A stretch of 38,443 nt of DNA, taken from the IMG/VR virus record IMGVR_UViG_3300022930_000017, positions 1 through 38,443 of that record; one strand, given 5' to 3'. The DNA is from a virus. Lineage: Duplodnaviria > Caudoviricetes. Positions 1 through 24,081 of the stretch are shown in pieces. A program made the position numbers and the translations under genes. The notes beneath the pieces were generated by a model. That model was given only the letters and a program-made list of their open reading frames with translations. It ran no database searches and had not been told where the DNA came from. Each line of letters starts with the position of its first letter. The first letter of the stretch is position 1.

Positions 1-137
1 TGATAATAAGAATTGCGAGTTAAAAAGACTGGAAGAAGAACAACAGCGTCAAGAACAACAGAACGAGTTCCAGAGTAAATTGCAAGCAAAGAGCGAGATT
101 ATTGAGAGTTTAAATACCCAGCTACGCCAGAAAACAG
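1..137. repeat. Terminal direct repeat, left copy (circular overlap)
   Basis: Identical to 38307-38443 except position 3 (a vs c) and 128 (c vs a); the i-spanin ORF reads through the join. Confidence 0.95.
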
Positions 138-256
138 CTAATATACAGAAAAGGTTAAATGATGATATTAAAATTGATGACAGTTATAAGCCCACTCTGC
201 CTGTTAATGGGATGCAACTCAGAGCCGAAGCCATTGCCAATATTTATTCCCGCTAA
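1..256 (+). CDS. i-spanin (Rz-like), 3' part; gene starts at 38224
   Basis: Frame continues from 38224: ...ELKRLEEEQQRQEQQNEFQSKLQAK...AIANIYSR*; coiled coil; overlaps a lipoprotein ORF as Rz/Rz1 pairs do. Confidence 0.75.
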   Translation, partial: DNKNCELKRLEEEQQRQEQQNEFQSKLQAKSEIIESLNTQLRQKTANIQKRLNDDIKIDDSYKPTLPVNGMQLRAEAIANIYSR

Positions 257-404
257 TTTAAAGAGCGAATGCGAAGTATTGGTTGATAGCAAGCCAGTTA
301 ATATAGGTGAGCTGTTACAAGCCGATATAGAGTTGATTAGAATGTATGGCGAATGCGCAAATAAGCATAAAGCATTAATAGAGGTTCTTGATGCTAAACA
401 GTGA
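159..404 (+). CDS. o-spanin (Rz1-like lipoprotein)
   Basis: Signal peptide with lipobox LLMG-C, Pro-rich stretch PKPLPIFIP, two further Cys; starts inside the i-spanin gene in another frame. Confidence 0.8.
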   Translation: MMILKLMTVISPLCLLMGCNSEPKPLPIFIPANLKSECEVLVDSKPVNIGELLQADIELIRMYGECANKHKALIEVLDAKQ

Positions 405-471
405 TTGGTTTGAAATACTAGCATGGGTATTATTATTTATAGCAATGCTATATATGGTATGGAGAAAGTAA
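391..471 (+). CDS. 26-aa single-TM peptide in lysis cassette
   Basis: MLNSDWFEILAWVLLFIAMLYMVWRK*; GAGG upstream; its stop overlaps the endolysin ATG (TAATG). Confidence 0.55.
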   Translation: MLNSDWFEILAWVLLFIAMLYMVWRK

Positions 472-893
472 TGGACATCAAGAAACTCACAGAAGAATTG
501 AAAAGAGACGAGGGCGTTGTTTTGCATGCTTATACTGACTCGCTGGGCTTCCTTACAATTGGCGTTGGAAAATTAATCGACGCACGTAAAGGCGGCGGCA
601 TATCAATGGAAGAAGCCGAATATTTACTAGCTAATGATATTAAACGCGTAATGAATGAACTAGATAGGCGTTTATCCTGGTTTAAAACGCAGCCTGATGG
701 GGTTCAACGTGGTTTATGTAATCTTGCTTTTCAAATCGGTGTTACTGGCTTATTGGGCTTTAAAACCACTTTAATGCATATTGCCAGTGGTAACTATAAA
801 GAAGCTGGTAGAAGTGCTAGGCAGTCATTATGGTATAAGCAGACTAAGGATAGAGCAGAACGCACTATTGCATTGATTGAAGCTGGGAAGTAG
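471..893 (+). CDS. Endolysin, T4-like lysozyme (GH24)
   Basis: LKRDEGVVLHAYTDSLGFLTIGVG gives the E-x8-D-x5-T triad; NLAFQIG and SLWYKQT motifs. Start placed at ATG 471 after GGAGA. Confidence 0.92.
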   Translation: MDIKKLTEELKRDEGVVLHAYTDSLGFLTIGVGKLIDARKGGGISMEEAEYLLANDIKRVMNELDRRLSWFKTQPDGVQRGLCNLAFQIGVTGLLGFKTTLMHIASGNYKEAGRSARQSLWYKQTKDRAERTIALIEAGK

Positions 894-1019
894 ACGTTAA
901 AATAAAGCGCTCAAATTAATTAGAGTCTCAAAATTCATAATATATTAACATCAAAGGTCTATCGGAATTCCGATAAGCCCCAGACATATAGTCCGAGGCG
1001 CACCCTTATAGGGCGGGAG

Positions 1020-1059
1020 AAATAAAAAGCCCCTATCAACGGGAGTCAATAAGGGGCTT
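1020..1059 (-). terminator. Intrinsic terminator
   Basis: AAGCCCC...GGGGCTT stem followed by TTTATTT on the minus strand. Confidence 0.75.
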
Positions 1060-1127
1060 AGTTCACTTAAGTATATAACTGAAGATTAACGTGCTTTAAG
1101 GCGTTAATCGAAAGTGGCGGCCACCAT
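1020..1127 (-). ncRNA. Putative structured small RNA, antisense to early-gene RBS motifs
   Basis: Own promoter (1134-1163), four consecutive hairpins; the last has G-U pairs that form only on the minus strand, a UCCC loop and a U tract. Confidence 0.6.
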
Positions 1128-1133
1128 TAAGCC

Positions 1134-1163
1134 ATTATACCACAACTACACAGGGACTTTCAA
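1134..1163 (-). promoter_or_regulatory. Sigma70-type promoter for the small RNA
   Basis: TTGAAA-N18-TATAAT with extended -10 TG (TGGTATAAT). Confidence 0.65.
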
Positions 1164-1409
1164 GTGTTTTTGTTTAGTAAGCCTTATGCGGTTAGCTAGA
1201 TAGATATTATCCAACTCAACACGTTTAAGTTCTTCCCTAAGTAATTTATTCTTAGCTTTGGAGTATTTAACCTGTTTACGCAGTTCTGGACTACCTTGAT
1301 TAATAACCAGTAGTTGTTCATAGCATGGCACTACATGCATGTGTTCTTTACGGTACCAGTGCATAAATCTCATTGGCATAATTAAAATTTCACTCCGCTG
1401 TTCTGCCAT
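1146..1409 (-). CDS. Hypothetical protein
   Basis: 87-aa ORF co-oriented with and overlapping its neighbour. Confidence 0.55.
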   Translation of the reverse strand: MAEQRSEILIMPMRFMHWYRKEHMHVVPCYEQLLVINQGSPELRKQVKYSKAKNKLLREELKRVELDNIYLANRIRLTKQKHLKVPV

Positions 1410-1672
1410 ATCTTATCAGCAATAAAGCTATCATATAAGGAGAGCTTTGGTTTAGGCGGTTGTTTCTCTGCATGGCGTTTATTGCATAGCTTTCTATGCC
1501 TTTCGCTAGTTTTATACTTCTTTACATAATCAGGCATTTTAGTGCGGATAATAGTACCTACACGCTGCTTGCATAAACCGTTCATATCACCTATTTCTGC
1601 AAAGCTATACCCGTCTTTATACTCTTGCATTATTTTATTATCTCTTTCTGTGTTATCTGTAAATCTAGGCAT
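1382..1672 (-). CDS. HTH DNA-binding protein (sigma region 4-like)
   Basis: YKDGYSFAEIGDMNGLCKQRVGTII helix-turn-helix; AAGGA RBS. Confidence 0.7.
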   Translation of the reverse strand: MPRFTDNTERDNKIMQEYKDGYSFAEIGDMNGLCKQRVGTIIRTKMPDYVKKYKTSERHRKLCNKRHAEKQPPKPKLSLYDSFIADKIWQNSGVKF

Positions 1673-1686
1673 ATTCTTCCTTTAGT

Positions 1687-1780
1687 TGGTAGGGATGGGT
1701 GGTGTTGACTATCCACTCGCTTAATTTCACATAAATCATTATTATGTTATGCCCTGTTTCCGCAGTGCGCCGCCATCCCT
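1687..1780 (-). ncRNA. tRNA-like cloverleaf RNA ending in ACCA (non-canonical)
   Basis: 8-bp AGGGATGG/CCATCCCT stem then ACCA; three internal stem-loops; lacks TTC loop and U33. Confidence 0.6.
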
Positions 1781-1790
1781 GTAGTGTTAT

Positions 1791-2306
1791 TTATTCCCGC
1801 CCTTCCTTATATGAATTATATTGTGCTGCTAAAAGTTTCTCGTTAGTTGCAGCAAACTCGCCAAAATACAGTAAAGCGGCAGCATCGTAAGCTTGTGCAG
1901 CTTCTTTTTCATCAACAAAAAGCCCAAGATGTTTATGTTTATAATCCACTTTAATATATGCAATCCATTTTCTAGTAGCTTTATGCCAACCTACTCCCTT
2001 AAATTTTGAAGTAGTGTTTTTTCTGAGTTTGGAGTTCTGTTGGTTTTGAGCATGGTTTGCCAATCTTAAATTACTTTTGGAATTGTTTAGCGGGTCGCCG
2101 TTTATATGGTCAACATGGAATCCCTTATCTGCGCTTAGTATAACGCGATGCATGAGTAAAGTTTCATCTCTTGCGTTTCTAGCTGCGCAACCCCAAGCGG
2201 AACAAAACCACTTCCATTGCATCAAATGGTCGTAATCATCGGCATCAACTATTGCGAATTTGCCTTGCGTAAGCGGTATCAATTTGGTATCTTGGGAAAT
2301 ATCCAT
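1791..2306 (-). CDS. HNH homing endonuclease with C-terminal AP2 domain
   Basis: MHRVIL...VDHINGDPLNNSKSNLR (HNH); SKFKGVGW...KWIAYI...HLGLF...AAQAYDAAA (AP2). GGAGGT RBS places the start at 2306. Confidence 0.93.
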   Translation of the reverse strand: MDISQDTKLIPLTQGKFAIVDADDYDHLMQWKWFCSAWGCAARNARDETLLMHRVILSADKGFHVDHINGDPLNNSKSNLRLANHAQNQQNSKLRKNTTSKFKGVGWHKATRKWIAYIKVDYKHKHLGLFVDEKEAAQAYDAAALLYFGEFAATNEKLLAAQYNSYKEGRE

Positions 2307-2386
2307 GACGCACCTCCAGTGCTTTATGGTTGGGCAGTCGAGAACCTCATATTCTTGCTGCCCTTTATTTTTACCAATTTTTATAG

Positions 2387-2674
2387 CTATTTGCAAGACT
2401 TTAATTCCTTATTTTCCAAAGTTAACGACTCAACCTTCGCCTCAAGGCTGCGGATTATGTCTACCATTTCGGGTGCGGCGGCGATAAAAGCTGCATCATG
2501 GAATGAATTGGCAGTCGCAACTATTTCTTGGGGAGTTTCTGGGAAGTTATCATCATACACCGCATGTGCATAAATAATAACACCTACATCGCTCCAATTC
2601 CCTCCTGTAAATTGCGTCCTTGCCTCGTCTAAAGCATAAATATTCTTTATTTTATTTTCTAGTTTGCTAGTCAT
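2387..2674 (-). CDS. Hypothetical phage protein
   Basis: DAAFIAAAP motif common in small phage early proteins. Confidence 0.7.
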   Translation of the reverse strand: MTSKLENKIKNIYALDEARTQFTGGNWSDVGVIIYAHAVYDDNFPETPQEIVATANSFHDAAFIAAAPEMVDIIRSLEAKVESLTLENKELKSCK

Positions 2675-2822
2675 TTTTACCCGCTTTTATTTTATGCTCA
2701 AGCAATGTTTTCGAGCTTTCAATTACTAAATTAATCCCAGCTTTAACGCCCGATTCCCAGCCTTCTTGGTAAGCTTTTGTGATTGCTTCGCTAATAAGTT
2801 TTTCCATATCTTCTTTAGTCAT
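2667..2822 (-). CDS. Hypothetical protein (51 aa)
   Basis: MTKEDMEKLISEAITKAYQEGWESG...; GAGG RBS; AYxEGW motif. Confidence 0.6.
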   Translation of the reverse strand: MTKEDMEKLISEAITKAYQEGWESGVKAGINLVIESSKTLLEHKIKAGKND

Positions 2823-3084
2823 TTAAGCCTCGCTGTTTGGTTGTGTTAGTTTTTAACTTCACTTTCTTTAGTCCTTTTTTTGCCGCATTCTTGCAAGCCG
2901 CATCCCATTGTTTGCGGACTTTAGCGTTTGTTTCATATTCTGCAGGCACAGCAACAAATATTTTCTGATTATTGCCATCCATGAACATCTGCCAATAATC
3001 TGTATTATAATCAGGCTTGATAGTAAAAACATCGCCATGCTTTACAATTTCCCTTTCTTCCATAGCTATTGGATAATAATTCAT
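2815..3084 (-). CDS. Hypothetical protein
   Basis: 89-aa ORF, ATGA-coupled to the upstream gene. Confidence 0.65.
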   Translation of the reverse strand: MNYYPIAMEEREIVKHGDVFTIKPDYNTDYWQMFMDGNNQKIFVAVPAEYETNAKVRKQWDAACKNAAKKGLKKVKLKTNTTKQRGLND

Positions 3085-3428
3085 ATATTCTCGCTGTTTG
3101 GTTCAGCTAGTTGCTTTGCTTTTTCTAGCAATCTTTCTGCCAATTCCAAGCTCCTTTTGCGAGTTTCAACATTTTTTATATGCTCGCTAACTAGCCAATC
3201 TTTAGCTTCTTGGAAAGTCTTAAAGAAACAAACATTTTCAGATATTCTATTTCTTCTCTCAAACTCGCCTTTGCGATAAAATTTCTCTACCCACACCGAT
3301 TTATCAGTTTCCCTATTGACCAAAACTTTATTAATTTCGCCCATATAATAGTTTTTTGCTTCATAATATTCCATATCACTCCTTATCCGCGCTCTGGGTT
3401 GGTTTCTCCAATCGTTTTTGCATATCAA
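3081..3428 (-). CDS. Hypothetical protein
   Basis: 115-aa ORF with RETDKSVWV motif; start uncertain. Confidence 0.65.
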   Translation of the reverse strand: MICKNDWRNQPRARIRSDMEYYEAKNYYMGEINKVLVNRETDKSVWVEKFYRKGEFERRNRISENVCFFKTFQEAKDWLVSEHIKNVETRKRSLELAERLLEKAKQLAEPNSENI

Positions 3429-3684
3429 CTGATTGCCTAAAACACACTTTTAAATGCGTTACTGGTAGTTGTTTGCCATCTGCGCCAAGATACACAACTC
3501 CCATCAAGTCGTTTCTATCGGCTTGAAATGCCAAAGCATTAAACCAAGGAATATCACGAAATCTAGCTTGCATAGAAGCGTTATCAATTACAAAATCACC
3601 TACATGCTTAACGGCGTATTTCTTTTCCTTTTTTGGTTTTTTCTTTGTAAGCTCTTCTTTTTTCTTTTTCTCAAATATTTTCAT
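3376..3684 (-). CDS. Hypothetical protein, Lys-rich N-terminus
   Basis: AGGAG RBS; 102 aa. Confidence 0.65.
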   Translation of the reverse strand: MKIFEKKKKEELTKKKPKKEKKYAVKHVGDFVIDNASMQARFRDIPWFNALAFQADRNDLMGVVYLGADGKQLPVTHLKVCFRQSVDMQKRLEKPTQSADKE

Positions 3685-3692
3685 AGTTTCTC

Positions 3693-3833
3693 CTATTTCG
3701 CCTCTTCCACTAACTTCCTAATCTTCATTGATACATTGCCCTCAGTATCACGATTGGCAAGCTTTTTAATCTTTTCCTCGTGGTGGTGTTCCCATTGTAT
3801 TTCACGGCGATATTTCTTTGGTTTTTTAGTCAT
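3693..3833 (-). CDS. Ribbon-helix-helix-like small regulator (46 aa)
   Basis: MTKKPKKYRREIQWEHHHEEKIKKLANRDTEGNVSMKIRKLVEEAK; strand-helix-GNVS-helix pattern; AGGAG RBS. Confidence 0.55.
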   Translation of the reverse strand: MTKKPKKYRREIQWEHHHEEKIKKLANRDTEGNVSMKIRKLVEEAK

Positions 3834-4025
3834 TTATTCTCCTATAAAAGCTACTTGGTTAGAATCCACATACTCAGGTATAAAGCCTAGCTGTTGCAGG
3901 TCTTTCTTCCCCTCGCTCATACCTACCAACGTTTCAGCCCGTACCATGCGTTCTGTTATGTGATACGTACCAGCACACGTTGTTATTGCGGTTAGTAGTA
4001 TTAAAAATATATTTGTTAGTTTCAT
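3834..4025 (-). CDS. Small membrane-anchored/secreted protein
   Basis: N-terminal hydrophobic helix; CAACGGGAG RBS. Confidence 0.65.
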   Translation of the reverse strand: MKLTNIFLILLTAITTCAGTYHITERMVRAETLVGMSEGKKDLQQLGFIPEYVDSNQVAFIGE

Positions 4026-4041
4026 TTGTTTTCTCCCGTTG

Positions 4042-4329
4042 TTAATCTTCTATTTCATTAATTTCCCAAATCTCAGGGTCGTCGTATCCTGAGAACTCTT
4101 CCAATGCTTTGGCTTCTGCGTCATCTTCATCATAAGCCTCTACAATTGTTATTTCATAATCTACCGTTACTAGGCGAACTTCTACCTCATACTTTTTTAA
4201 GACATCGCCTTTTTCATTGCCAAAGGTTTTATCAAGCTTTTGGCGTATTAGTTTCGTCGATTCGCCATAATATTTAGTTTCGTTTATTTCCGGCAAGACC
4301 TCTAGGTATTTCTTATGTATTTCATTCAT
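4042..4329 (-). CDS. Hypothetical protein, acidic C-terminus
   Basis: KKYEVEV...IVEAYDEDDAEAKA motif typical of small phage proteins. Confidence 0.7.
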   Translation of the reverse strand: MNEIHKKYLEVLPEINETKYYGESTKLIRQKLDKTFGNEKGDVLKKYEVEVRLVTVDYEITIVEAYDEDDAEAKALEEFSGYDDPEIWEINEIED

Positions 4330-4331
4330 CC

Positions 4332-4583
4332 CTAAGCCTCTTTTACGTTAATTATTTGTTTTTGTTTCTAAGATAAACTTCCCACGCATCGCCTTCTAGT
4401 GTGCGAATGACTGAGCTGATTTGAGCATCTAAGCCTTGGTCTTCTTCACCGCCGCCAATCATGTCATGCAGTAGCCTTATTGCTTCCTTGACGTTATCTT
4501 GTATCTTAGCCATATCGTCTAAATCATCGTTCTTAACTGCGGTATATTCCATTCTATCTAACATTCTAAGCCTCTTTTACGTT
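4332..4583. repeat. 18-bp direct repeat CTAAGCCTCTTTTACGTT flanking one gene
   Basis: Exact copies at 4332-4349 and 4566-4583; each contains the RBS of the next minus-strand gene. Confidence 0.9.
4352..4564 (-). CDS. Hypothetical protein
   Basis: 70 aa; GAGG RBS within the repeat. Confidence 0.7.
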   Translation of the reverse strand: MLDRMEYTAVKNDDLDDMAKIQDNVKEAIRLLHDMIGGGEEDQGLDAQISSVIRTLEGDAWEVYLRNKNK

Positions 4584-4703
4584 GTTAATATTCTTTTCAA
4601 TTTCTTCATTTACACTTTGCGCTCTATCCAAACTTAGAAAAACATAAGTACCTATTAATAATGCGGCTAGTGTAGTTAATGCGAATATATCTGTTATTTT
4701 CAT
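4566..4703 (-). CDS. Small membrane-anchored protein (45 aa)
   Basis: MKITDIFALTTLAALLIGTYVFLSLDRAQSVNEEIEKNINNVKEA; GGAG RBS. Confidence 0.6.
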   Translation of the reverse strand: MKITDIFALTTLAALLIGTYVFLSLDRAQSVNEEIEKNINNVKEA

Positions 4704-4704
4704 A

Positions 4705-4914
4705 TTACTCTCCGTTGGTTAAATTAACTATTTTACAAGGTGGATTATTCTTTCTTTTCTCTGTTACAAACTCATGATGCGTCATAATAGTTTCGTATAT
4801 TACTATGCCTGCAAGAGCCTCTGCAAACTTCCTATGCAGTTCCGGTACATAAGATTGTAGTATTGTGGCGCATTTAGCTTCAATACAATCAAGCAACTCT
4901 TGCTCTTGTTCCAT
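4705..4914 (-). CDS. Hypothetical protein
   Basis: Start placed at MEQEQ after AGGAGG. Confidence 0.6.
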   Translation of the reverse strand: MEQEQELLDCIEAKCATILQSYVPELHRKFAEALAGIVIYETIMTHHEFVTEKRKNNPPCKIVNLTNGE

Positions 4915-5056
4915 TTTTAGCCTCCTGCATGCGTGCCTCATTTATATCTAACCAGTTTTGCCCTAATATTGGGTCTACCCTGCCTGTTTGAATACCTAGT
5001 GCTATATCTGCTCTTGCTTTCAAATAGCGTTCTATAATTGTGTTTTTAACTAGCAT
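4889..5056 (-). CDS. Hypothetical protein (55 aa)
   Basis: MLVKNTIIERYLKARADIALG...; AGGAGG RBS; fills the gap in the operon. Confidence 0.55.
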   Translation of the reverse strand: MLVKNTIIERYLKARADIALGIQTGRVDPILGQNWLDINEARMQEAKNGTRARVA

Positions 5057-5285
5057 AAGCCTCCTGAACTGTATTGCGGATAAACTCTAATGTTTGGCTA
5101 ATACCATTTGAATGCGGAACGTATTTATATTCCTTACCGTCGCTAACAACATCTGCGTCACCTGTATATAGTTCAGCCGCGCCAGTAAAAATAAATTTTT
5201 CAGCAGCGTGGTGCATCATATCAGTTACGTCACCTTTTTTATAAAGGTGATAAAATCTGTCATCTTGTAAAAATCTAATTTTCAT
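5046..5285 (-). CDS. Hypothetical protein, first gene of leftward early operon
   Basis: MKIRFLQD...YKKGDV; CAACGGGAG RBS directly after the promoter. Confidence 0.7.
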   Translation of the reverse strand: MKIRFLQDDRFYHLYKKGDVTDMMHHAAEKFIFTGAAELYTGDADVVSDGKEYKYVPHSNGISQTLEFIRNTVQEAYAS

Positions 5286-5310
5286 TTTAATCTCCCGTTG
5301 TTATAAGTAT

Positions 5311-5339
5311 ATCTTACGTAAGTTTTACGTAAAAGTAAA
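5311..5339 (-). promoter_or_regulatory. Leftward early promoter with tandem TTACGTAA palindromes
   Basis: TTTACT-N17-TAAGAT; CTTACGTAAG (5313-5322) and TTTTACGTAAAA (5323-5334) cover the spacer. Confidence 0.7.
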
Positions 5340-5380
5340 GGGAAAAATACACTAAGGAGAAAGAATTATTTGGGTGTGTG

Positions 5381-5728
5381 TTATTTGGGAGACAGTTCAC
5401 CAAGTGCTTTTTTGGCAGTCATTCTATACCAGTCTACATTACTAGATGCACCTAAAGCAAGGTTACGCAAAGCTCCTTCTAGCTCTGAAATGCGCTGGGC
5501 TTGGGTAACTACTATATCTTTTGACCATAAGCGAGGTTTAGGCAAATCTTCTTCCCACTTTGCGGTAATGTCATTTTCTGGGGGTGCATTAAGCCTTCTG
5601 CCGTCATCATGGTAAAAGTTATGGTCTGCGCCTATCCAATTATAGACATCGTCTTTGTTAATAATCTCCACCTTCTCACCATTTCTATTGCGATAAAGCC
5701 CCACCGAATCAATGCGAAAATCACTCAT
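5381..5728 (-). CDS. Hypothetical phage protein
   Basis: GLYRNRNGEKVEII...DITAKWEE motif; AGGAGAGGG RBS. Confidence 0.7.
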   Translation of the reverse strand: MSDFRIDSVGLYRNRNGEKVEIINKDDVYNWIGADHNFYHDDGRRLNAPPENDITAKWEEDLPKPRLWSKDIVVTQAQRISELEGALRNLALGASSNVDWYRMTAKKALGELSPK

Positions 5729-5739
5729 CCCCTCTCCTC

Positions 5740-6093
5740 CTATTTACCCTGTTGTTGGGCGGTTAATAATAAATTCATATCCTCTACACTTCTAACTACA
5801 CCTGCTATAGCGCCCATTTTAAGCATCTGATTAATAAAATCCTGTTGGTGCATCTTAATCATACCCGTTGGAGTCTTAACCTCAGCAAATACAGCTACCC
5901 CTATTTGCTTTCCCACCATCTCAGGTGTTATAGTAACGGTATGTACACCAACTAAATCAGTAGTACCCACACCTAAGCCGTATCTAATAGTACGGTCTCC
6001 AATATTAGCAACACCTTGATCGTTAACGAATAGGCGGGTGTTACCTCGTGAGCAGTTAAGCCGTATGTTGTTCTGAATGTTTCTTTCTTTCAC
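5740..6093 (-). CDS. VRR-NUC family nuclease
   Basis: ERNIQNNI, GTTDLVG, FAEVKTPTG, QQDF, GAIAGVVRSVED (PD-(D/E)xK). GTG start after GGAGG. Confidence 0.88.
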   Translation of the reverse strand: MKERNIQNNIRLNCSRGNTRLFVNDQGVANIGDRTIRYGLGVGTTDLVGVHTVTITPEMVGKQIGVAVFAEVKTPTGMIKMHQQDFINQMLKMGAIAGVVRSVEDMNLLLTAQQQGK

Positions 6094-6406
6094 GCTTCCT
6101 CCCACGTGTTAATTTCACTGCTTCTCTTGTTATATTTATATGTTCTTTAGGGGAAATTAAATCTAAATGCTCAGGATTTATGCAATAATCATTATTACAA
6201 GTGCTCTTAGTAATTAAGTCATCAATAATCTCACCTACATATAATTGGAAAGCAAAGCGACGAGCATTCACACTTTTACGCCCATGATAAAAACGTAATA
6301 TTTTGCGTTCTCTATCTGTATTTACAGACCCTGTCCAAATCCAACAACCAGTATTAGGCTCTAGAATATAATATTTATTAAATTTCTCCTCTAAACTTAG
6401 TTTCAT
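6056..6406 (-). CDS. HNH (His-Me finger) endonuclease-like protein, probably inactive
   Basis: GCWIWTG...CNNDYCINPEHL scaffold, but AHR is ARR and the DH position is KS. Confidence 0.8.
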   Translation of the reverse strand: MKLSLEEKFNKYYILEPNTGCWIWTGSVNTDRERKILRFYHGRKSVNARRFAFQLYVGEIIDDLITKSTCNNDYCINPEHLDLISPKEHINITREAVKLTRGRKRERKKHSEQHTA

Positions 6407-7749
6407 CTCCCACCTCTTGCCTTATATATAATACCTGCCCAGTGGGTAGGATTCTTATAACCACGTTTAATAGCCAATGCTTTAAGCTCCTCGAACGTCC
6501 TAGCAGCGCCCTGCTCCTGTTTCTTTATTTTCTCTTCCTGTGCTTGCTGCTCCTTAATAAGCTCCAACTCACCAGCTATTTCCTCAACAGTACGTTCACG
6601 CCTTAAATTAATATGACCACACTCAGGGCATTCCTCTGCTGGTGCATAACAAGCCTTGCACTTCTCGCATTCCCTAACCGCTATAGTCGCTTCTTTAGCA
6701 GCTCTCGCTTTCTTTCCCTCTAAACTCCACTCAATAGGCGTATCAGGTAACCCATGCCGCTTAAAGTTATTTACATGGTCTAATATAATACAGGTCTTAT
6801 CCGGTATATAACGCAAGCCCCTACCATTTCCTTGCCGCACCACAATTAAACTAGCGCTAGGTCTGCGCCATACTACACACTCAATAGCCGGTAAGTCGTA
6901 ACCCTCCAATATCATAGAAACCGATACAACAACCAGCAACTCACCAGCTTTAAATTTATTGCTTATATCGTCGCTCTCTTCACTATTTAAGCTACTCTCT
7001 AAGCTCGCAGCAGGAATACCAGCCGCACAGTAAGCCTGCGCTACTTCCTGTGCGGCTTTAATAGAGTGAGCAAATACTACAGCGCGCTTTCCATTAGCAT
7101 ACTTCTTATACGACTCAATACAGTCACCAGTTATAGTGCTTTTCTCGTATAACTTATCTATACTGGCAGTAGTATACTCACCGCCTGCTTTTCTAAGCTG
7201 AGATGTATCTATTCCAGAAGGTGCATAATATTTATATGGGCTTAAACGCTTGTTATTAATCAGCCATTGCATATCAGGCGCTTGTATCATGTGGTTAGCA
7301 TAAGCACCCAATCCTTTGCCATCAGTGCGCTCAGGTGTAGCTGTAAGCAGCAGCCTATAAGTGCCCTTAGTAGATATAACATCGTATGTTTTAGCACCTA
7401 TGTTATGTGCTTCATCTACTACAACTAAATCAGGTTCAGAGAAACGATGAATGCGGTTAGCTAATGTTTTTGCCATACAGATATATATACGTTTATTAGG
7501 GTTGTATGGCTTGCGGGCTGCAATAAATCCAAAATCAATACCTTCTCTGGTAAAAGCATCAATAACATCACTGAACAACCGCTTACGGTGAACAACAAAC
7601 CACGCTGTACCTTTAAGTGTGGAAAATATATCAGCCGTAAGCGTAGTTTTCCCAAAACCAGTAGGAGCTACTAATAGCACTGATTTATGCTCAAGAAGTG
7701 CCGCACGCAACTTCTCTTTAACTTCTATCTGGTCTGGGAATAACTTCAT
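6403..7749 (-). CDS. SF2 DEAD/DEAH helicase with C-terminal Zn finger
   Basis: APTGFGKT, VVDEAH, LTATPER, QGNGRGLR, CEKC/CPEC. Confidence 0.95.
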   Translation of the reverse strand: MKLFPDQIEVKEKLRAALLEHKSVLLVAPTGFGKTTLTADIFSTLKGTAWFVVHRKRLFSDVIDAFTREGIDFGFIAARKPYNPNKRIYICMAKTLANRIHRFSEPDLVVVDEAHNIGAKTYDVISTKGTYRLLLTATPERTDGKGLGAYANHMIQAPDMQWLINNKRLSPYKYYAPSGIDTSQLRKAGGEYTTASIDKLYEKSTITGDCIESYKKYANGKRAVVFAHSIKAAQEVAQAYCAAGIPAASLESSLNSEESDDISNKFKAGELLVVVSVSMILEGYDLPAIECVVWRRPSASLIVVRQGNGRGLRYIPDKTCIILDHVNNFKRHGLPDTPIEWSLEGKKARAAKEATIAVRECEKCKACYAPAEECPECGHINLRRERTVEEIAGELELIKEQQAQEEKIKKQEQGAARTFEELKALAIKRGYKNPTHWAGIIYKARGGR

Positions 7750-7751
7750 AA

Positions 7752-8171
7752 TTAAAACAGTGGAATACTATCTGCTAGGTCATCAGCAATATTAGGATTG
7801 CCCTTATCTATATAGCTAGCCACTACATTCTTAGGTGTAAAGTCACCCTGTGCAGGCTGAGTTTTAATAGAAGCCTTGCCAGCCTTACCTTCAAAGTGAC
7901 CCGCGCTTAGGTTGCCTGTGTCGTACTGACTAAGTAAGCCCATAGCTTTAGCAGCAGCTTTAAGTTTAAAATCCTGTGTGCTGGTGATATAATCTTTAAT
8001 AGTCTTTGTTTTCTCGTCATCATCAAAGAAACGTAGCTCAAGAACTACCATATCATTGCCGCTGGATTTACTTACAGCGTCCTCAGCACTTACAACCTCG
8101 AAGTCGTAAATACCGTCTTTCCATAGTCCCGCTTCCGCCAATTCATTATCTGTTTTAGGTTTAAATTGCAT
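7752..8171 (-). CDS. DUF669-like ssDNA-binding protein
   Basis: DGIYDFEVVSAE..SKSSGNDM; acidic tail DDLADSIPLF; lies between AAA ATPase and helicase. Confidence 0.8.
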   Translation of the reverse strand: MQFKPKTDNELAEAGLWKDGIYDFEVVSAEDAVSKSSGNDMVVLELRFFDDDEKTKTIKDYITSTQDFKLKAAAKAMGLLSQYDTGNLSAGHFEGKAGKASIKTQPAQGDFTPKNVVASYIDKGNPNIADDLADSIPLF

Positions 8172-9028
8172 TATTTTCCTTCCTTTATGTAGTTAATTAT
8201 TTTATCCAGCTTATCCGAATCCATATCATCTAGCTTGTCGCACTTAGCGGCAGCCAGCCATTTATCCATAACTCCCTCTTTCAACTTATACGTCTCAAGA
8301 AGTATTTTAACCTCAGCTAACTGCTCAGGTGTGGCAAGTTTAATAGGCGCAGATACACGCTCAATAACAGCCCTGCCGTAACGCTCTGCAAACTCCTTGT
8401 ATGACCACTCGAAGTTACCGCCATCAGGAAAACCCTCTAATCTGGATTTCTTAATAAATGCCTTTCTAGAATCGCCCTGTTTCTTAATATTGAGCGTAAG
8501 GTCTAATATATACTCCAGCTTTTCCCATGCATCATAAGTTACGCCTACCTGCTTCTCGTTAGCCCACTCTGCTTTTTCGTGAGCAATAAGAATAACATTC
8601 ATATCCAGCCTATCTAACCAGTTAACTAAGCTGCGCTGATAAGCAATAGCTGGCTTCTTGCTGGCACCGAATGCGTCCTTATCACCTAAGCGCTCTGCTT
8701 CTTTAGCTATCTCGATGTTAGCGAGATGCGAGATACTATCTATAATAAGTGTTTTATATTCATGCTTCTCTGTAGCTAAAGCTTTAACCTGCTCTATAAC
8801 TTCTTTGAAATTATTAGCCCCTTGCTCAACGCCTAAATATACACCGCCTGCACGGCTTAATTTATCTGTGTAGTGGTTACGTGTTGCACCAGCTTCACTA
8901 TCTATATAATAGCAGTTAGGGAAGTCTAATGATGTGAACGTTTTACCTGCTCCGGCTTTGCCGAATATAATAAGCTTCGGCTTTTGTGGGCTAACCGTCT
9001 GTGGACATACTGCTTTTAATCTACTCAT
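8171..9028 (-). CDS. AAA ATPase (Sak4/AAA_24-like recombination protein)
   Basis: Walker A GKAGAGKT, IDSE, TLIIDS, LIAHEK. Confidence 0.88.
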   Translation of the reverse strand: MSRLKAVCPQTVSPQKPKLIIFGKAGAGKTFTSLDFPNCYYIDSEAGATRNHYTDKLSRAGGVYLGVEQGANNFKEVIEQVKALATEKHEYKTLIIDSISHLANIEIAKEAERLGDKDAFGASKKPAIAYQRSLVNWLDRLDMNVILIAHEKAEWANEKQVGVTYDAWEKLEYILDLTLNIKKQGDSRKAFIKKSRLEGFPDGGNFEWSYKEFAERYGRAVIERVSAPIKLATPEQLAEVKILLETYKLKEGVMDKWLAAAKCDKLDDMDSDKLDKIINYIKEGK

Positions 9029-9288
9029 TTTCTATTTCCTATATAATAATCGTTTAATGCCTGTAATACCGTTAGTAAATCATCATATGCATCTTGAGTT
9101 TTTTCTACTACATACTCATCTAAGGCACACGCAACACGATGTTTAATAAAAGCTTCCTCACCAATAGAAGGTTTATTTAAATGCTCTGTAAAAGCATCTT
9201 TTACACCATCGTAAATAGCAGCTTGCACATCAGTATAATGCGGCAAACAACTAACGAACGCTTCCTGTGTTTCTTTTTTATTTAACAT
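9025..9288 (-). CDS. Hypothetical protein
   Basis: AAGGAG RBS; first gene after the leftward promoter. Confidence 0.7.
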   Translation of the reverse strand: MLNKKETQEAFVSCLPHYTDVQAAIYDGVKDAFTEHLNKPSIGEEAFIKHRVACALDEYVVEKTQDAYDDLLTVLQALNDYYIGNRK

Positions 9289-9298
9289 AATTTTCTCC

Positions 9299-9338
9299 TT
9301 GCTAACAACTTTATAACATGCTAAATTTCCGTAGTCAA
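9299..9338. promoter_or_regulatory. Overlapping opposed sigma70-type promoters
   Basis: Rightward TTGCTA-N17-TAAATT (9299-9327); leftward TTGACT-N17-TATAAA (9338-9310); both have extended -10 TG. Confidence 0.7.
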
Positions 9339-9366
9339 CTAATTTTTTAACACAGGAGGAAAATAA

Positions 9367-9645
9367 ATGACATATTCAGAAATGATTAAACAAGCCCGCA
9401 AAGACTCTGGCCTTACGCTAGAATATGTAGCTGAGAAGCTTAATACAAGCGCATCTTACTTGCATGATATAGAAAATGGAAAGACTAAAACGCCTAAAAT
9501 GACATTACTTACCCAGTTAGCAGGGTTCTACTATATGGATAGAGACAAGTTATTAGTAGCAGCCGAAAGAATACCTGATGATGTGTTTTATAAAATCATT
9601 CGTAATCCACAATTAATTCAGGTCATCAGAGATGCAAACGTTTAA
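9367..9645 (+). CDS. XRE/Cro-CI family HTH regulator
   Basis: IKQARKDSGLTLEYVAEKLNTSASYLHDIENGK; AGGAGG RBS. Confidence 0.93.
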   Translation: MTYSEMIKQARKDSGLTLEYVAEKLNTSASYLHDIENGKTKTPKMTLLTQLAGFYYMDRDKLLVAAERIPDDVFYKIIRNPQLIQVIRDANV

Positions 9646-11560
9646 CCAAGCTGTTACTGATTTTGGTATAATAGCTAACCATATACCTGATGACGGAGTT
9701 ATATATCGTTATCCAACTTATGATAAGCCGCGCAGCCTGAATGGCTGGGCTGTCTTATTCGAGGGCGCAGAAGGCGGAGTATATGGAGATTGGCAAACGG
9801 GGGAGCAGTGCAACTGGCAAGCTGATTATGCTGACCCCGTTCGATTAAAAAAGAGTAGAGAAGATTTTAAAATAAAGCAAGAAAAAGCTTATGAAGAGGC
9901 CGCACAAGAAGCTAACAAGTTATGGAATAACTATGATTTAGAAGGTGAGAGTCTTTATTTAACTAGAAAGAAAGTTAAAGCCCACGGTATAAGATTTAAT
10001 AACGGCCTTATAATAGTGCCGTGTTTGCGGGATAATAAAATAGTTACATTACAGACTATCTATCCAGACGGATTTAAAAGCTTTATGAGCGGTGGCGGAT
10101 TTAAAGGCAGTAGTTTTGTTATACAAGGCGATAATAGCAGAATTATTATATGTGAGGGCTACGCTACCGGAGCAAGTATATATGAAGCTACCGGATTTAC
10201 TGTAGTTATAGCATTTAATGCTGGTAATATTCCAAATGTAGCTAAGAACTATAAGGGTAAGCCGGTAACTATAGCCTGTGATAACGATGCGAATGGAGTA
10301 AGTGTTAAGTTTGCTAAGAAGACGGAATTCCCGCATATTATGCCAAAAGAAGTTGGCAAAGATTTTAATGATATAGCCAGAGATATACCAAGTTATTTCT
10401 TTGATTTATCACCGGCATTTAGTTTAAAGCATTATTTAGAAGATAAATCACCGATACCTGTAGATTTAATATCACCACGTATATTAACTCCTAATGGTTT
10501 AATGGTATTTGGTGGCGCACCTAAAGTCGGTAAGTCTGATTTCTTAGTTAATATGCTAGTTGCTATGGCAGGTGGTCAGCAATTCATGGGCATGACTCCA
10601 GCTAAGCCTCTGCGTATATTTTATCTTCAAGCAGAGGTAGAGTATCACTATTTAAGAGAACGTTTAAAGTGCATTGAAAACGTAGGTTCAGAGGCTGAAA
10701 ATAATCTTTTCATTACGCCGCACTTAAAGATGATTCTAAATTCAGATGGTGTTCAGCGCATAGCCCGCACTATTAATGCTCATTTTAAAGATGGTATAGA
10801 TATTATAGCTATTGACCCCCTAAGAAATGTTTTCGATGGCGAAAATGAAAACGACAATAATAGCATGATGACTTTTTTAAGAGAGCGCATAGAGCTGCTA
10901 AAGGAGCTTACAGGTAATCCTGCCGTAATAATAGCCCATCACACCAAGAAAATAAGTAAGGAAGCATTGGTTGAAGACCCGTTTCAAAGCCTCAGCGGTG
11001 CAAGCGCATTGCGTGGATATTATACTACAGGCATTATTATGTACCGCCCCGAAGAAACCTGTTCAGAGCGCAGAATAACATTTGAGCTTAGAAACGGTGC
11101 TAAAATTGATGATAAAAATATAGATAAAATTGAAGGTAGATGGTGTCAGATTGATAAAGAGTCTAGCCGTCTAGTAGGCCAACATCATGGCGAAAGATTA
11201 GATGCCGAGCGTCTACGCAAACGTGATGCTATACTAAATATTATAGCCACAGAAGCCGAAGAAAAAGGTCTGTTATATACTTCCAGACAGTTCAGAGAAA
11301 CGTTCGAGGGACGCGATGGATTAGGTGGAAATACGACAATAAGAGATAGAATTAGCGTTCTTGCAACTAAAGGATATATTAAATTTCGTAGCATAAATGC
11401 AACGCACGGTGTGAAAAATGAGCTTATTATCGAAGGTATGCAACTTTTAGACACTATAACAGGGGAGCTGTTGCCGGTGAGTGCAACCCATTGTAAATCA
11501 AAGACAAATGGACGAATTGTCGAAGACCCGAACCCAGATACGTGGATTTACGAAAATTAA
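9632..11560 (+). CDS. Primase-helicase (Toprim + RecA-like AAA_25)
   Basis: Toprim CEGYATG...IACDND...KDFND; helicase GAPKVGKS, LQAE, IDPL, HHTKK, SGASAL. Confidence 0.92.
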   Translation: MQTFNQAVTDFGIIANHIPDDGVIYRYPTYDKPRSLNGWAVLFEGAEGGVYGDWQTGEQCNWQADYADPVRLKKSREDFKIKQEKAYEEAAQEANKLWNNYDLEGESLYLTRKKVKAHGIRFNNGLIIVPCLRDNKIVTLQTIYPDGFKSFMSGGGFKGSSFVIQGDNSRIIICEGYATGASIYEATGFTVVIAFNAGNIPNVAKNYKGKPVTIACDNDANGVSVKFAKKTEFPHIMPKEVGKDFNDIARDIPSYFFDLSPAFSLKHYLEDKSPIPVDLISPRILTPNGLMVFGGAPKVGKSDFLVNMLVAMAGGQQFMGMTPAKPLRIFYLQAEVEYHYLRERLKCIENVGSEAENNLFITPHLKMILNSDGVQRIARTINAHFKDGIDIIAIDPLRNVFDGENENDNNSMMTFLRERIELLKELTGNPAVIIAHHTKKISKEALVEDPFQSLSGASALRGYYTTGIIMYRPEETCSERRITFELRNGAKIDDKNIDKIEGRWCQIDKESSRLVGQHHGERLDAERLRKRDAILNIIATEAEEKGLLYTSRQFRETFEGRDGLGGNTTIRDRISVLATKGYIKFRSINATHGVKNELIIEGMQLLDTITGELLPVSATHCKSKTNGRIVEDPNPDTWIYEN

Positions 11561-11569
11561 CTAATATTC

Positions 11570-12060
11570 CTATATTTAATTAAAATATTAACCTTTTTTA
11601 AAAGAGGGGTTGAAACCCGCATGAATACTGGGGTGTTTTTTTAAGAGCCGCGCTGGCTGGGCTGGGCGCGCTAGTACCTCGTTTTTAGGGTAAAATAGGC
11701 CTCAAAGTGGCTGTAGCTGGGCTGGGCGTTTTTTGCCCGGGTCTGGAAGGCGCAGAAACCCTAGGTCGTGTTTTTGAAAAGGCCTATGGCTGGGGCGGGC
11801 GCTCACTTCTAACACCAAAATGCATAAGTCGTTGAAATATAAGGGAAATGGGTGGGCAACTTTTGTTTTTATTTTTGGACTATGAAATCATAATGCCCGC
11901 CCCTATGGCTGGGGCTTTCAGAGCCTAAAATAAAAAGTTGTCAGTACACCTTCCCCCTAAAGGGGGAAGAAAACCGCTAGGGTTTTTCTTTTCCCCCTTA
12001 GAGGGTAATTTGCGTTTTCTGTATAAAAGTTTCATAAAGATGATATAAATAAATTCGCAA
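11570..12060. other. Probable replication origin
   Basis: Non-coding region after the primase; GCTGGGCTGGGCG x2, CCTATGGCTGGGGC x2, GC hairpins, AT-rich flanks. Confidence 0.65.
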
Positions 12061-12076
12061 GTAGCGAAAATAATTA

Positions 12077-12105
12077 TTGACTAGCTAGTTTTGTTACGCT
12101 ATATT
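12077..12105 (+). promoter_or_regulatory. Rightward early promoter
   Basis: TTGACT-N17-TATATT, palindrome ACTAGCTAGT, then CAACGGGAG leader. Confidence 0.75.
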
Positions 12106-12131
12106 CAGAATACAAACAACGGGAGAGGGAA

Positions 12132-12323
12132 GTGGATAGATTAAAAGAAGATTACCTAAAAGCTTTGGTTGACCACATAGGGCGTGTTAATTACCAAATA
12201 GGTGGAAATGATGCTACCGGTTATGGTGGTAGCCCGAACAATCAAGCTTTACAAAAAGAGCGGGAGAGTTTGCAAAAAAGGTTTAATTTGTTTTTAGATT
12301 CAGAAAAGGTAATGCCTAGATAA
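12132..12323 (+). CDS. Hypothetical protein
   Basis: GTG start after GGGAGAGGGA. Confidence 0.6.
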   Translation: MDRLKEDYLKALVDHIGRVNYQIGGNDATGYGGSPNNQALQKERESLQKRFNLFLDSEKVMPR

Positions 12324-12357
12324 ACAATAACCCAGACTTGGGTGGGGAGTGAGTAAG

Positions 12358-12687
12358 ATGGGAGTAGATTTAACGTTGGGCGTAATGGACTGGGAAGATG
12401 ATAAAACAGCTTATTGTTTTTCACGTTTAAATTTAGAGCGCCGTAGAGAGTTGTGGCCTGAAATTAACGGAAAGCCTCTAGGCAAGAAGGTAAGTGGTTA
12501 TTTTAAAGATAATTATGGCGAAATCACAGAAGATTGTTATGGCGGTAAAATTACATACTTAGAAGCTGGAGAATTGCTTGAACTGAAAAACCACGAAAGT
12601 GTCAGAGATAATTTTACTAACAGAGCTATTTGGGCTTATTTGGCTGAGTTGCCCGCAGACCACAAGATTATTTTATACTGGAGTTGA
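12358..12687 (+). CDS. Hypothetical phage protein
   Basis: MGVDLTL...IILYWS; ATG after GGGGAG. Confidence 0.7.
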   Translation: MGVDLTLGVMDWEDDKTAYCFSRLNLERRRELWPEINGKPLGKKVSGYFKDNYGEITEDCYGGKITYLEAGELLELKNHESVRDNFTNRAIWAYLAELPADHKIILYWS

Positions 12688-12688
12688 T

Positions 12689-12847
12689 ATGAAAAACAAC
12701 AATAACGACATAGACCAATTAATGGAAGAATGGCTCGAGGAATTAGAGGTGGAACATGCGCAGAGTATGGCACGGTTACGCTCTTTGGGTGGATGGCTCT
12801 TAGTGGGATTCGTGGTTTGGTTAGCGTTTGTGGCAATTAATTGGTAG
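12689..12847 (+). CDS. Small membrane protein
   Basis: C-terminal TM LGGWLLVGFVVWLAFVAINW; GGAG RBS. Confidence 0.55.
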   Translation: MKNNNNDIDQLMEEWLEELEVEHAQSMARLRSLGGWLLVGFVVWLAFVAINW

Positions 12848-12853
12848 GTGGGT

Positions 12854-13027
12854 ATGGAGCCTGATTTGAACAGAAGAATTGATGAGGCTATGATTAAAGC
12901 TGATAGAACCTCTAAGGAAGCAGAAGGTTTATTGGATGGCCTAAAAGACTCGAAATATTATTACTTTAAACTTGGTTACGATGCAGGATTAGAAGAAGGA
13001 AGGAAAAATGAATTTAGAAGATATTAA
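12854..13027 (+). CDS. Hypothetical protein (57 aa)
   Basis: MEPDLNRRIDEAM...FKLGYDAGLEEG; fills the operon gap. Confidence 0.55.
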   Translation: MEPDLNRRIDEAMIKADRTSKEAEGLLDGLKDSKYYYFKLGYDAGLEEGRKNEFRRY

Positions 13028-13328
13028 GAAACAAGCTAAGATTGCTGAACAATGGCTAGAACTCGGGGCTTTTTATACTGACCAACTCCCTTTCCCTAAA
13101 GCACTCATTGCCGCCGCTCGTTTATTAGAGCAGGTTGAGGTTGTAAGAAGTGACGAAGTGAAGCAAATGGGAGATTTGTTAGAGGTTAAATATGGAGAGC
13201 GTGGGGAATTTACAGATTATATAAAATGTAAAAACGATGGCGGCCTTCCAGCAGTAACGCTTTCAACGCGAGTAATAATGCGTAACAACAAACCAGCTAT
13301 TTATTTACCAAAGGAGATTGCAGAATGA
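13008..13328 (+). CDS. Hypothetical protein
   Basis: 106 aa; GGAAGG RBS. Confidence 0.65.
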   Translation: MNLEDIKKQAKIAEQWLELGAFYTDQLPFPKALIAAARLLEQVEVVRSDEVKQMGDLLEVKYGERGEFTDYIKCKNDGGLPAVTLSTRVIMRNNKPAIYLPKEIAE

Positions 13329-13534
13329 GTGATTATATAGAAGATGTTATCTGGAGGTGGAATAAGGCTTGCGGTAATATGGCTGGTGTTCCTACGCAGT
13401 TCTGGAATGACTTGAAGTGCTTTCTAGCCTCTTTATTTGGGTTTGCTTTTTTTATATCAGTTCTGCCGCTAGTTCTTCTAATTCCTATTGTATCAGGCGT
13501 TTATTGTATACTAGGTAAATTAAACCACAAATGA
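13325..13534 (+). CDS. Small membrane protein
   Basis: Long hydrophobic C-terminal half; AAGGAG RBS; ATGA coupling. Confidence 0.6.
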   Translation: MSDYIEDVIWRWNKACGNMAGVPTQFWNDLKCFLASLFGFAFFISVLPLVLLIPIVSGVYCILGKLNHK

Positions 13535-13561
13535 AACAAACACTCAATCAAGCGAGGGAAT

Positions 13562-13744
13562 ATGACTGATATAGAAAATTGTCCATTCTGTGGCAAGCAA
13601 CCAGAGTTAAACCATACCTTTGGCAAGCTGGTTATAGAATGCAGATATAAGAAATGCACAATTAGACCAAGTACGTGGTTGGCAGTATCAACAGATAAAC
13701 TCAAAGTGGTTATCAAAGCTTGGAACACACGAGGAAAGATATGA
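13562..13744 (+). CDS. Lar-like (restriction alleviation family) Zn-finger protein
   Basis: CPFCG...C..KKC...IKAWNTR signature. Confidence 0.75.
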   Translation: MTDIENCPFCGKQPELNHTFGKLVIECRYKKCTIRPSTWLAVSTDKLKVVIKAWNTRGKI

Positions 13745-14052
13745 AACAAACACCAGAATTTAATAGGCATCGGCATAATAAATTAATTTGTTGTGATTGC
13801 AATGAACGCCATGCAGAAATTGGTTCGATTGCATGCAGTCATTGTAACAATAAGACGAATAAAATGGTGTTAGAAAAAGTTAGTAAGGAAGCCAAGCTGC
13901 AACAACGCATTGCATCGCTTGAGGAAACTTTGGCTATAGCAATGGGGGATATTGTCTATTTAACTCATGAAAGAGCCGATAAAGACCGCTTTGGCGACAC
14001 AATACACGCAATTGAAACTCTTTTAAACAAAAAGGATACCCATGATAAATAA
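13741..14052 (+). CDS. Hypothetical Zn-finger/coiled-coil protein
   Basis: CCDC...CSHC; ATG 13741 after GAGGA. Confidence 0.6.
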   Translation: MKQTPEFNRHRHNKLICCDCNERHAEIGSIACSHCNNKTNKMVLEKVSKEAKLQQRIASLEETLAIAMGDIVYLTHERADKDRFGDTIHAIETLLNKKDTHDK

Positions 14053-23367: not shown

Positions 23368-24081
23368 ATGGCATATACCGCCCTAAATCTAATAACTGAT
23401 GTGTTGCTAGATATGGGCGTTATTGCTGATGAGCAAACTCCTACGGCTTCACAGGCTGTGGGAGCGCTCACAAAGCTTAACGACCTTATTGAAGCTTGGA
23501 ATCTAGACACACTGAAAGTATACGGTGCCAAGCAGTATATCTTACCTCTGGTTCCAAATCAGGGGACATACACGATAGGTACAGGCGGTAACTTAGATGT
23601 GCCGCGCCCTATTCTTATTACAAAGGCTTTTATTCGTCAAAACACCGGTGTTCCTGCTAATCAATATGATTACCCTGTGGAAGTGTTGACTAACGAAGAA
23701 TGGTCTGAATTACCAAACAAAGCTATAACGGGGACATTTCCTTATGCTGTTTGGTTTAATGAAACATATCCATATATTCAATTAAACGTATCTCCGGTTC
23801 CTACGGGGAGCAATTACAGTCTGATTTTTTGGGCAGACGGTATGGGCGGAGAGTTGACTTTAAATACAACTCTCCAACTGCCTCCGGGATATAAACGTGC
23901 GCTTAAATACGCTTTGTTTATGGAGTTAGCACCGGGTTATCAGATTGAAACACCTGCAGCTATTGCAGCTTTAGCATCATCATCAAAGCATCAAATTGAT
24001 GTATATAACTTACAACTAAACGAATTAAATATAAACCGTGGTTACTGGTTTGACATCTACTCTAATAGAATAAGGGGCTAA
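23368..24081 (+). CDS. Head-tail adaptor (P22 gp4-like)
   Basis: TALNLITDVLLDMGV...ALTKLNDLIEAW...LPPGYKRALKY.L..ELAP.Y. Confidence 0.8.
   Translation: MAYTALNLITDVLLDMGVIADEQTPTASQAVGALTKLNDLIEAWNLDTLKVYGAKQYILPLVPNQGTYTIGTGGNLDVPRPILITKAFIRQNTGVPANQYDYPVEVLTNEEWSELPNKAITGTFPYAVWFNETYPYIQLNVSPVPTGSNYSLIFWADGMGGELTLNTTLQLPPGYKRALKYALFMELAPGYQIETPAAIAALASSSKHQIDVYNLQLNELNINRGYWFDIYSNRIRG

Follow-up and report, generated by a model that had tools for sequence, protein, structure and literature searches.

The gap at 894-1145 of this phage genome may encode a trans-acting repressor RNA. Its terminator loop appears to be seeded on a tag, CAACGGGAG, that lies over the ribosome-binding sites (RBSs) of three early genes, and the RNA would damp early translation as delayed negative feedback; judging from sequence and structure modelling, we consider the case for this reading to be about evenly balanced.

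The window that was analysed (38,443 nt) is the whole virus record IMGVR_UViG_3300022930_000017. Its ends share about 135 bases, thus the genome is likely circular. It encodes a terminase, a portal, a P22-type coat protein, ejection proteins, an endolysin (471-893) and a spanin, as well as a helicase, an SSB, a Sak4-like annealing protein, an HTH protein and a primase-helicase. Cultured relatives are distant (coat protein ~30% to VvAW1, PBR31 and P26218). Two blocks of small genes, one running leftward from 5333-5306 and the other rightward from 12077-12105, are probably early operons, as suggested by their layout. The late and lysis genes and the leftward block converge in the gap 894-1145, which contains no predicted gene and holds the locus of the RNA.

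5306..5333, minus strand: leftward early operon, promoter-like site (9/12 match)
12077..12105, plus strand: rightward early operon, promoter-like site (10/12 match)

Other features of this layout were recorded in passing. The palindrome TTACGTAA is found twice (5314-5321 and 5325-5332), over the spacer and the -35 of the leftward early promoter, and both copies are candidate operator sites. The gap past the primase gene (11560-12050) contains GC-rich direct repeats (GGCTGGGCTGGGCG and CCTATGGCTGGGGC, two copies each) and nested inverted repeats at about 11950-12000, and is likely the replication origin. The penultimate gene of the leftward operon (1382-1672, minus strand) encodes a product resembling a small helix-turn-helix protein (weak Pfam UPF0122; HTH look-alikes 0.89-0.91), a candidate late activator. 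The AAA part of the primase-helicase (9632-11560) has 50% identity with a protein of Wolbachia phage WO, which hints, though weakly, at an alphaproteobacterial host.

The elements of the predicted RNA are all on the minus strand:

1134..1163, minus strand: sigma70-type promoter-like site (-35 TTGAAA, 18 nt, extended -10 TG-N-TATAAT), from the sequence
1020..1127, minus strand: predicted 108-nt RNA with four hairpins, from promoter, terminator and fold prediction
1027..1059, minus strand: hairpin 4, terminator-like (terminator-like hairpin 1055-1030), with a UCCC loop and a G-U-weakened upper stem, from the fold and the terminator call
1026-1020, minus strand: U tract after hairpin 4, from the sequence

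A preliminary description of this DNA had proposed the promoter TTGAAA-N18-TATAAT with extended -10 (1163-1134), an RNA running from 1127 to 1020, and a fold of four hairpins ending in a terminator with a UCCC loop; all three hold. The promoter, which overlaps the final codons of ORF 1146-1409, is the only 11/12 site and the best of 37 promoter-like sites in 1-14000, a total that is at chance level (39.3 +/- 5.5). The RNA sequence agrees with the one described, and the fold is recovered by folding 1015-1130 on the minus strand (-33.1 kcal/mol, z -4.57, none of 200 shuffles equally good) and by the call of a terminator-like hairpin. Hairpin 4 has a lower stem of 8 bp with UUUUUAUUU and is rated a good terminator. 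No variants were found in one DNA run that is possibly the source. Because no terminator was called on the plus strand of the gap 894-1145, late transcripts may extend into it and base-pair with the RNA.

Apart from hairpin 4, no terminator was called on the minus strand between 894 and 5330. This would suit a simpler explanation, in which hairpin 4 just terminates the leftward early operon, with an incidental promoter and a C-rich loop that matches the tag by chance or because it remains from an inverted gene junction. We consider this explanation unlikely overall; one point against it is that the best promoter of the region lies 80 nt upstream of the terminator call, with three other hairpins in between.

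The preliminary description had further assigned three segments, (a), (b) and (c), to pairing with distant start regions. For segment (a), pairing at nine of nine bases with three RBSs was recovered exactly where proposed:

1037..1045, minus strand: seed CUCCCGUUG, made of the loop and the 3' upper stem of hairpin 4, complement of CAACGGGAG (9/9 match)
5292..5300, minus strand: tag CAACGGGAG at the RBS of ORF 5046-5285, the first gene past the promoter-like site 5333-5306
4033..4041, minus strand: tag CAACGGGAG at the RBS of ORF 3834-4025, within the leftward small-gene operon
12117..12125, plus strand: tag CAACGGGAG at the RBS of ORF 12132-12323, the first gene past the promoter-like site 12077-12105

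The three targets have the 12-mer AACAACGGGAGA in common, which was detected in 3 of 32 early starts and in none of the 36 replication and late starts. The 9-mer CAACGGGAG itself is found in three of the 68 start regions of this phage, listed by hand, versus none of 2,642 starts called automatically in other phage contigs. Shuffled versions of the RNA rarely match any 9-mer common to at least three own starts (P=0.0015, 20,000 shuffles), and the real 9-mer sits on the loop, which argues against hairpin 4 being only a terminator. The pairing of segment (a) is predicted to be favorable (hybrid -14.6, opening 5.5, net -9.1 kcal/mol), and in an accessibility-aware scan the tagged starts rank first to third of 68 (-8.2, -7.6 and -6.7), all of them bound through RNA positions 83-91, followed by start 12358 (-5.2). 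The suggestion that many early genes are targeted is thus narrowed to three direct targets, perhaps with a fourth.

What stands out is that the match to a private tag is exact, and not that binding is unusually strong, because tests that rely on energy, ignore position or tolerate G-U pairs are weak. Compared with shuffled controls, the targets stand out by the exact 9-mer and not by binding energy: on energy alone, 774 of 975 shuffled RNAs reach the third-best own target of the real RNA, a result due in part to the weaker folding of the shuffles, and three of the 24 foreign start sets equal or surpass the own set. That shuffles and foreign starts match on energy, and that any UCCC loop binds GGGA, are points in favor of an ordinary terminator with a fortuitous loop. 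The position-blind k-mer test found 9-mers at three of 32 early starts (P=0.074) and at four of 36 other starts (P=0.036), and no signal at 7 or 8 bases (8-mers, P=0.14). If two G-U pairs are tolerated, the hairpin comes only sixth among the 281 terminator-like hairpins surveyed (p=0.007). Whole-length duplex energies do not rank the tagged starts first; these were set aside because they ignore structure. The tag is present in three copies only in this phage.

The two remaining segments fall within stems of the predicted fold:

1081..1090, minus strand: segment (b), the 3' arm of hairpin 2, buried in the fold
1051..1061, minus strand: segment (c), the 5' arm of the terminator stem, buried in the fold

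The matches reported for them are real (10/10 at 4041-4050 for segment (b); 10/11 at 4332-4342 and 4566-4576 for segment (c)), but neither segment offers a usable site, with net energies of -1.7 kcal/mol for (b) (hybrid -10.1, opening 8.4) and +1.0 kcal/mol for (c). Because both sit in stems, the two-site pairing in the manner of C4 and CI that had been proposed is unsupported, and so is the targeting of the AAGAGGCUUAG genes, which relied on segment (c). The genes matched by (c) score -1.1 or worse in the accessibility-aware scan of 68 starts, and its match has P=0.034 with all repeated 11-mers allowed. The site of segment (b) adjoins only one of the three tags, overlapping that (a) site by one base in a non-colinear order, and is one of 14 perfect matches of at least 10 nt in the window, most of them intragenic; its closeness to an (a) site has P=0.008. 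The order of (a) and (b) is swapped relative to the junction at 4033-4050, unlike a simple inverted copy, which counts against a leftover of an inverted junction. An alternative fold that pairs RNA positions 68-75 with 974-981 was rejected, as it costs 13 kcal/mol. We also observed a perfect match (11/11) to RNA positions 70-80, which are buried in the terminator stem, at 24069-24079 in the start region of the late gene 24084. Other motifs repeated in start regions, AACGTAAAAGAGGCTTAG and AACCAAACAGCGAG (two copies each; 4332-4349, 4566-4583, upstream of 2822 and 3084), look like gene-junction repeats.

If the locus does encode a repressor, the promoter-like site and the terminator-like hairpin would yield a stable 108-base RNA, whose open UCCC loop would pair first with the GGGA of the Shine-Dalgarno site. 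The CAAC of the target would then displace the G-U-weakened upper stem, giving a 9-bp helix over the RBS. Three early RBSs would be blocked in trans in this way, two belonging to the genes that open the early operons and one to an internal gene; because of the leading position of those two, polarity would also lower downstream genes. The RNA would accumulate from the host-type promoter, possibly also from the leftward early transcript, whose 3' end uses the same terminator, and its build-up would produce delayed negative feedback, with early expression damped as infection proceeds. With a consensus sigma70 promoter, transcription would begin as soon as the phage enters, consistent with a timer but not with a late-only switch.

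The minus-strand structure goes on past the U tract to about 938, a feature that is not in the preliminary description, and comprises eight hairpins in total across 1127-938:

1015-1001, 999-977, 976-959 and 953-938, minus strand: four further hairpins, with G-U pairs favoring this strand
1014..1022, minus strand: second anti-RBS stretch UUUCUCCCG, a single-stranded linker past the U tract, present in a read-through RNA only

The working molecule could therefore be a read-through RNA of about 190 bases and eight hairpins, in which the linker UUUCUCCCG serves as a broad anti-Shine-Dalgarno, or which acts as a protein-binding scaffold or restrains the converging lysis transcript by antisense pairing. 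Four observations favor it: positions 935-1019 fold strongly on the minus strand only (z -4.31 versus -1.46 on the plus strand); CGGGAGA, the complement of the UUUCUCCCG linker, is found five times in the window (the linker, the three tagged RBSs and one in-gene copy); two CUCCCG copies in 193 nt have P=0.002; and the long form binds 16 of the 68 starts at -4 kcal/mol or better, early and late, versus five for the short form. However, nine of these 16 predicted targets are not early genes (the endolysin among them), U tracts match A-rich spacers by default, hairpin 4 is a good terminator by virtue of its 8-bp lower stem with UUUUUAUUU, and no terminator call closes the long form. We find this longer RNA improbable as the working molecule. 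The core of hairpin 7 is a perfect 16-base palindrome (960-975), which from its sequence could be a protein-binding site in DNA.

Several known RNAs resemble the predicted RNA in part. In staphylococcal RNAIII and RsaE, which are host regulators of Firmicutes, a UCCC loop is the anti-Shine-Dalgarno seed. The loop is the only trait in common; Rfam covariance models gave no match at E<=1 over the whole window, and the pairing predicted here, unlike theirs, extends into a phage-private tag. The C4 RNA of phages P1 and P7 is a structured phage RNA that controls phage genes via short antisense pairing. The CI RNA of P4, according to the accessible part of PMC4825925, ends transcription early by antisense pairing, is processed from the leader that it controls and pairs with adjacent seqA and seqC; the RNA described here would be alike in controlling phage genes by short antisense pairing from a structured phage transcript. 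It differs from C4 and CI, as far as the available text describes the latter, in its single accessible site instead of two accessible segments, in its location at an operon 3' end, with targets 3-11 kb away (4033, 5292 and 12117), instead of in a leader, and in the lack of a covariance-model match.

Given the P4 CI precedent (PMC4825925, in the part available), the same pairing might be made constitutively, holding both early operons off during a carrier or plasmid-like state and countering superinfection. The near-consensus host-type promoter, the targeting of the gene that heads each early operon and an HTH_3 gene at 9367-9645 are consistent with such immunity. Against it, no integrase or partition gene was detected among the 69 ORFs scanned, and the replication genes (5381-11560) have their own predicted starts and no tag. 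In addition, the analogous hairpin of the Cluster K mycobacteriophages described below is in the late-start region, and not in the region that PMC11373665, in its accessible portion, reports as lysogenically expressed. A constitutive immunity role appears quite improbable to us.

OppZ and CarZ of Vibrio cholerae are sRNAs from operon 3' ends that pair with their own transcript and block translation, and OppZ pairing also triggers Rho-dependent termination (PMC7398697, available in part). Likewise, the repressor RNA proposed here is at an operon 3' end, on the same strand and directly past ORF 1146-1409, and by predicted pairing is complementary to the own-operon RBSs at 5292-5300 and 4033-4041. 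OppZ and CarZ are cut out by RNase E, whereas the promoter-like site here points to primary transcription; the phage RNA also differs in having its seed in the terminator loop and in that a divergent second operon bears the same tag.

No homolog of the RNA was found in 50,697 phage records, in IMG/VR with two exact patterns, in five capsid relatives, or by blastn and nhmmer over 270 loci. A covariance model built from the one sequence found none in 93 sources (1.6 Mb; best other match E=0.79), and a helicase scan of IMG/VR and a capsid scan of GTDB genomes found nothing. Coat-protein clusters at 70-92% number about 90, and the 13 fetched relative records have mainly the structural module in common (capsid relatives at 72-80%). 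The closest complete relatives have no such match between loop and starts, as expected if hairpin 4 were a plain terminator. Since there is no cultured host and no homolog was found, the RNA of this phage adds support as an example but would not be the first choice for a test.

Similar layouts were found in other metagenomic phages. A loop screen that was blind to the seed (5,829 intergenic loops, 43 records) had G047 among the matches listed. In this phage a terminator-like hairpin directly follows a gene block with the RBS tag AAACGAAAGG (seven copies, all forward), its loop UUUUUCGUUU is complementary to the tag, and an extended -10-like hexamer is found upstream of the hairpin. A pattern built from the hairpin described here and that of G047 then picked out G048, G049 and G051, a selection biased toward the trait. 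The G051 hairpin has the same loop and tag as that of G047. In G048 and G049 the hairpin closes a leftward early operon and has the loop UUUUCGUUUCC, and the tag AGGAAACGA marks the first leftward gene and four genes of the opposite, rightward early operon; no conserved promoter is evident at this hairpin. G047 has two proteins in common with this phage, and G048 and G049 have none at E 1e-3. As these phages are not close kin, the likeness is read as shared design and not as homology. None of the G047-G049 loci matches Rfam at the gathering score.

Broader scans show how rare the layout is. The first pattern scan returned 120 loci from 19 of 64 collection parts, 80 of them with long flanks, and two were significant at p<0.001. 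A narrower pattern run over all of IMG/VR gave 27 loci, of which four, from these two lineages (G047/G051 and G048/G049), match 6-9 own starts (p<=4e-5); the other 23 look-alike terminators match no own start, a point in favor of hairpin 4 being a plain terminator. In a survey of 281 terminator-like hairpins from 25 phage records, a strict Watson-Crick 9-mer over the loop matches at least three own starts in three hairpins only, those of this phage, G048 and G049. The controls gave one such match in 6,710 cross-genome pairings and none among 228 hairpins from unselected records, and the latter result counts against a plain terminator. At 8 bases, G051 joins (6/73 starts), and one of the 228 unselected hairpins matches. 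By analogy, these layouts in unrelated phages support the design of a loop matched to a tag.

Some other loci were recorded in the course of these scans. A candidate analog in G027 (promoter, loop UUUGUUCCUUU) was rejected, since it matches 3 of 52 own starts and 6 of 42 foreign sets do equally well. G027 has two promoter-to-terminator units with pyrimidine-rich open stretches, 1474-1539 (plus strand) and 28993-29121 (minus strand), at both of its gene convergence points; matches of the first unit to own starts are not above controls. A family of hairpins on the strand opposite structural genes keeps a similar terminator loop, UUCCCGUU, while the stems vary (L434:10001-10038, L441:5199-5236 and L442:10001-10036); no matching starts were found in the fetched flanks, which counts against the repressor reading. 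One AAACGGGAGA start was found in G052.

A further parallel is offered by start-associated sequences (SAS) of Cluster K mycobacteriophages, 13-base motifs that lie at the RBS of non-structural genes and of which each K1 genome carries a single reverse copy (PMC3203893). In the sections available, that paper leaves open whether RNA or protein binds SAS, their role was still termed ill-defined in 2024 (PMC11373665), and neither text ties SAS function to the reverse copy. In Anaya (25001-60835) we counted 16 forward copies, and the single reverse copy forms a 10-base hairpin loop in the gap between genes 96 and 97. This gap matches 193 phage records; its counterpart in Adephagia is the 92-93 gap, where late transcription appears to begin (PMC11373665, accessible portion). 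The anti-SAS hairpin loop is present in 4 of 14 Cluster K regions checked (Anaya, Adephagia, Validus and Amelie), and in Amohnition and Phrank the loop has drifted with SAS unchanged, so the device is not required in all SAS phages. In TM4 (20001-52797) there are 11 SAS, and no reverse copy was detected with up to two mismatches allowed. The Cluster K stems covary at 10 of 34 pairs, in seven sequences chosen for a pyrimidine loop, and Rfam has no family for these loci. A conserved multi-hairpin region at the late start was noted in L461:34740-34960 and its Cluster K relatives.

SAS and the tag of this phage are alike in being phage-specific, in lying over the RBS of non-structural genes with conservation beyond the 16S-pairing core, and in having one reverse copy away from starts that forms a hairpin loop. 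They differ in size and number (13 nt and 11-19 copies per genome for SAS versus 9-12 nt and three copies here), and CAACGGGAG has no sequence likeness to SAS. The K1 hairpin also differs in lying in the late-start region.

We tentatively propose, with somewhat less than even confidence, that RNA-only switches for turning off early genes, each composed of a private RBS tag and one complementary hairpin loop, have arisen repeatedly in unrelated tailed phages; the RNA of this phage would be one example, and the same device would explain the Cluster K SAS, unexplained since 2011. The shut-off of early genes in phages is generally attributed to proteins. In our searches of the open-licence literature, no antisense RNA directed at a tag common to early genes was described, and the accessible part of a 2025 review (PMC12197685) contains no RNA aimed at such a tag. 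The reverse SAS copy, as a loop in a conserved structured late-start region, could be mutated in Adephagia on M. smegmatis. If the proposal is true, one small RNA that addresses a class of genes via a common RBS tag would constitute a compact and retargetable switch.
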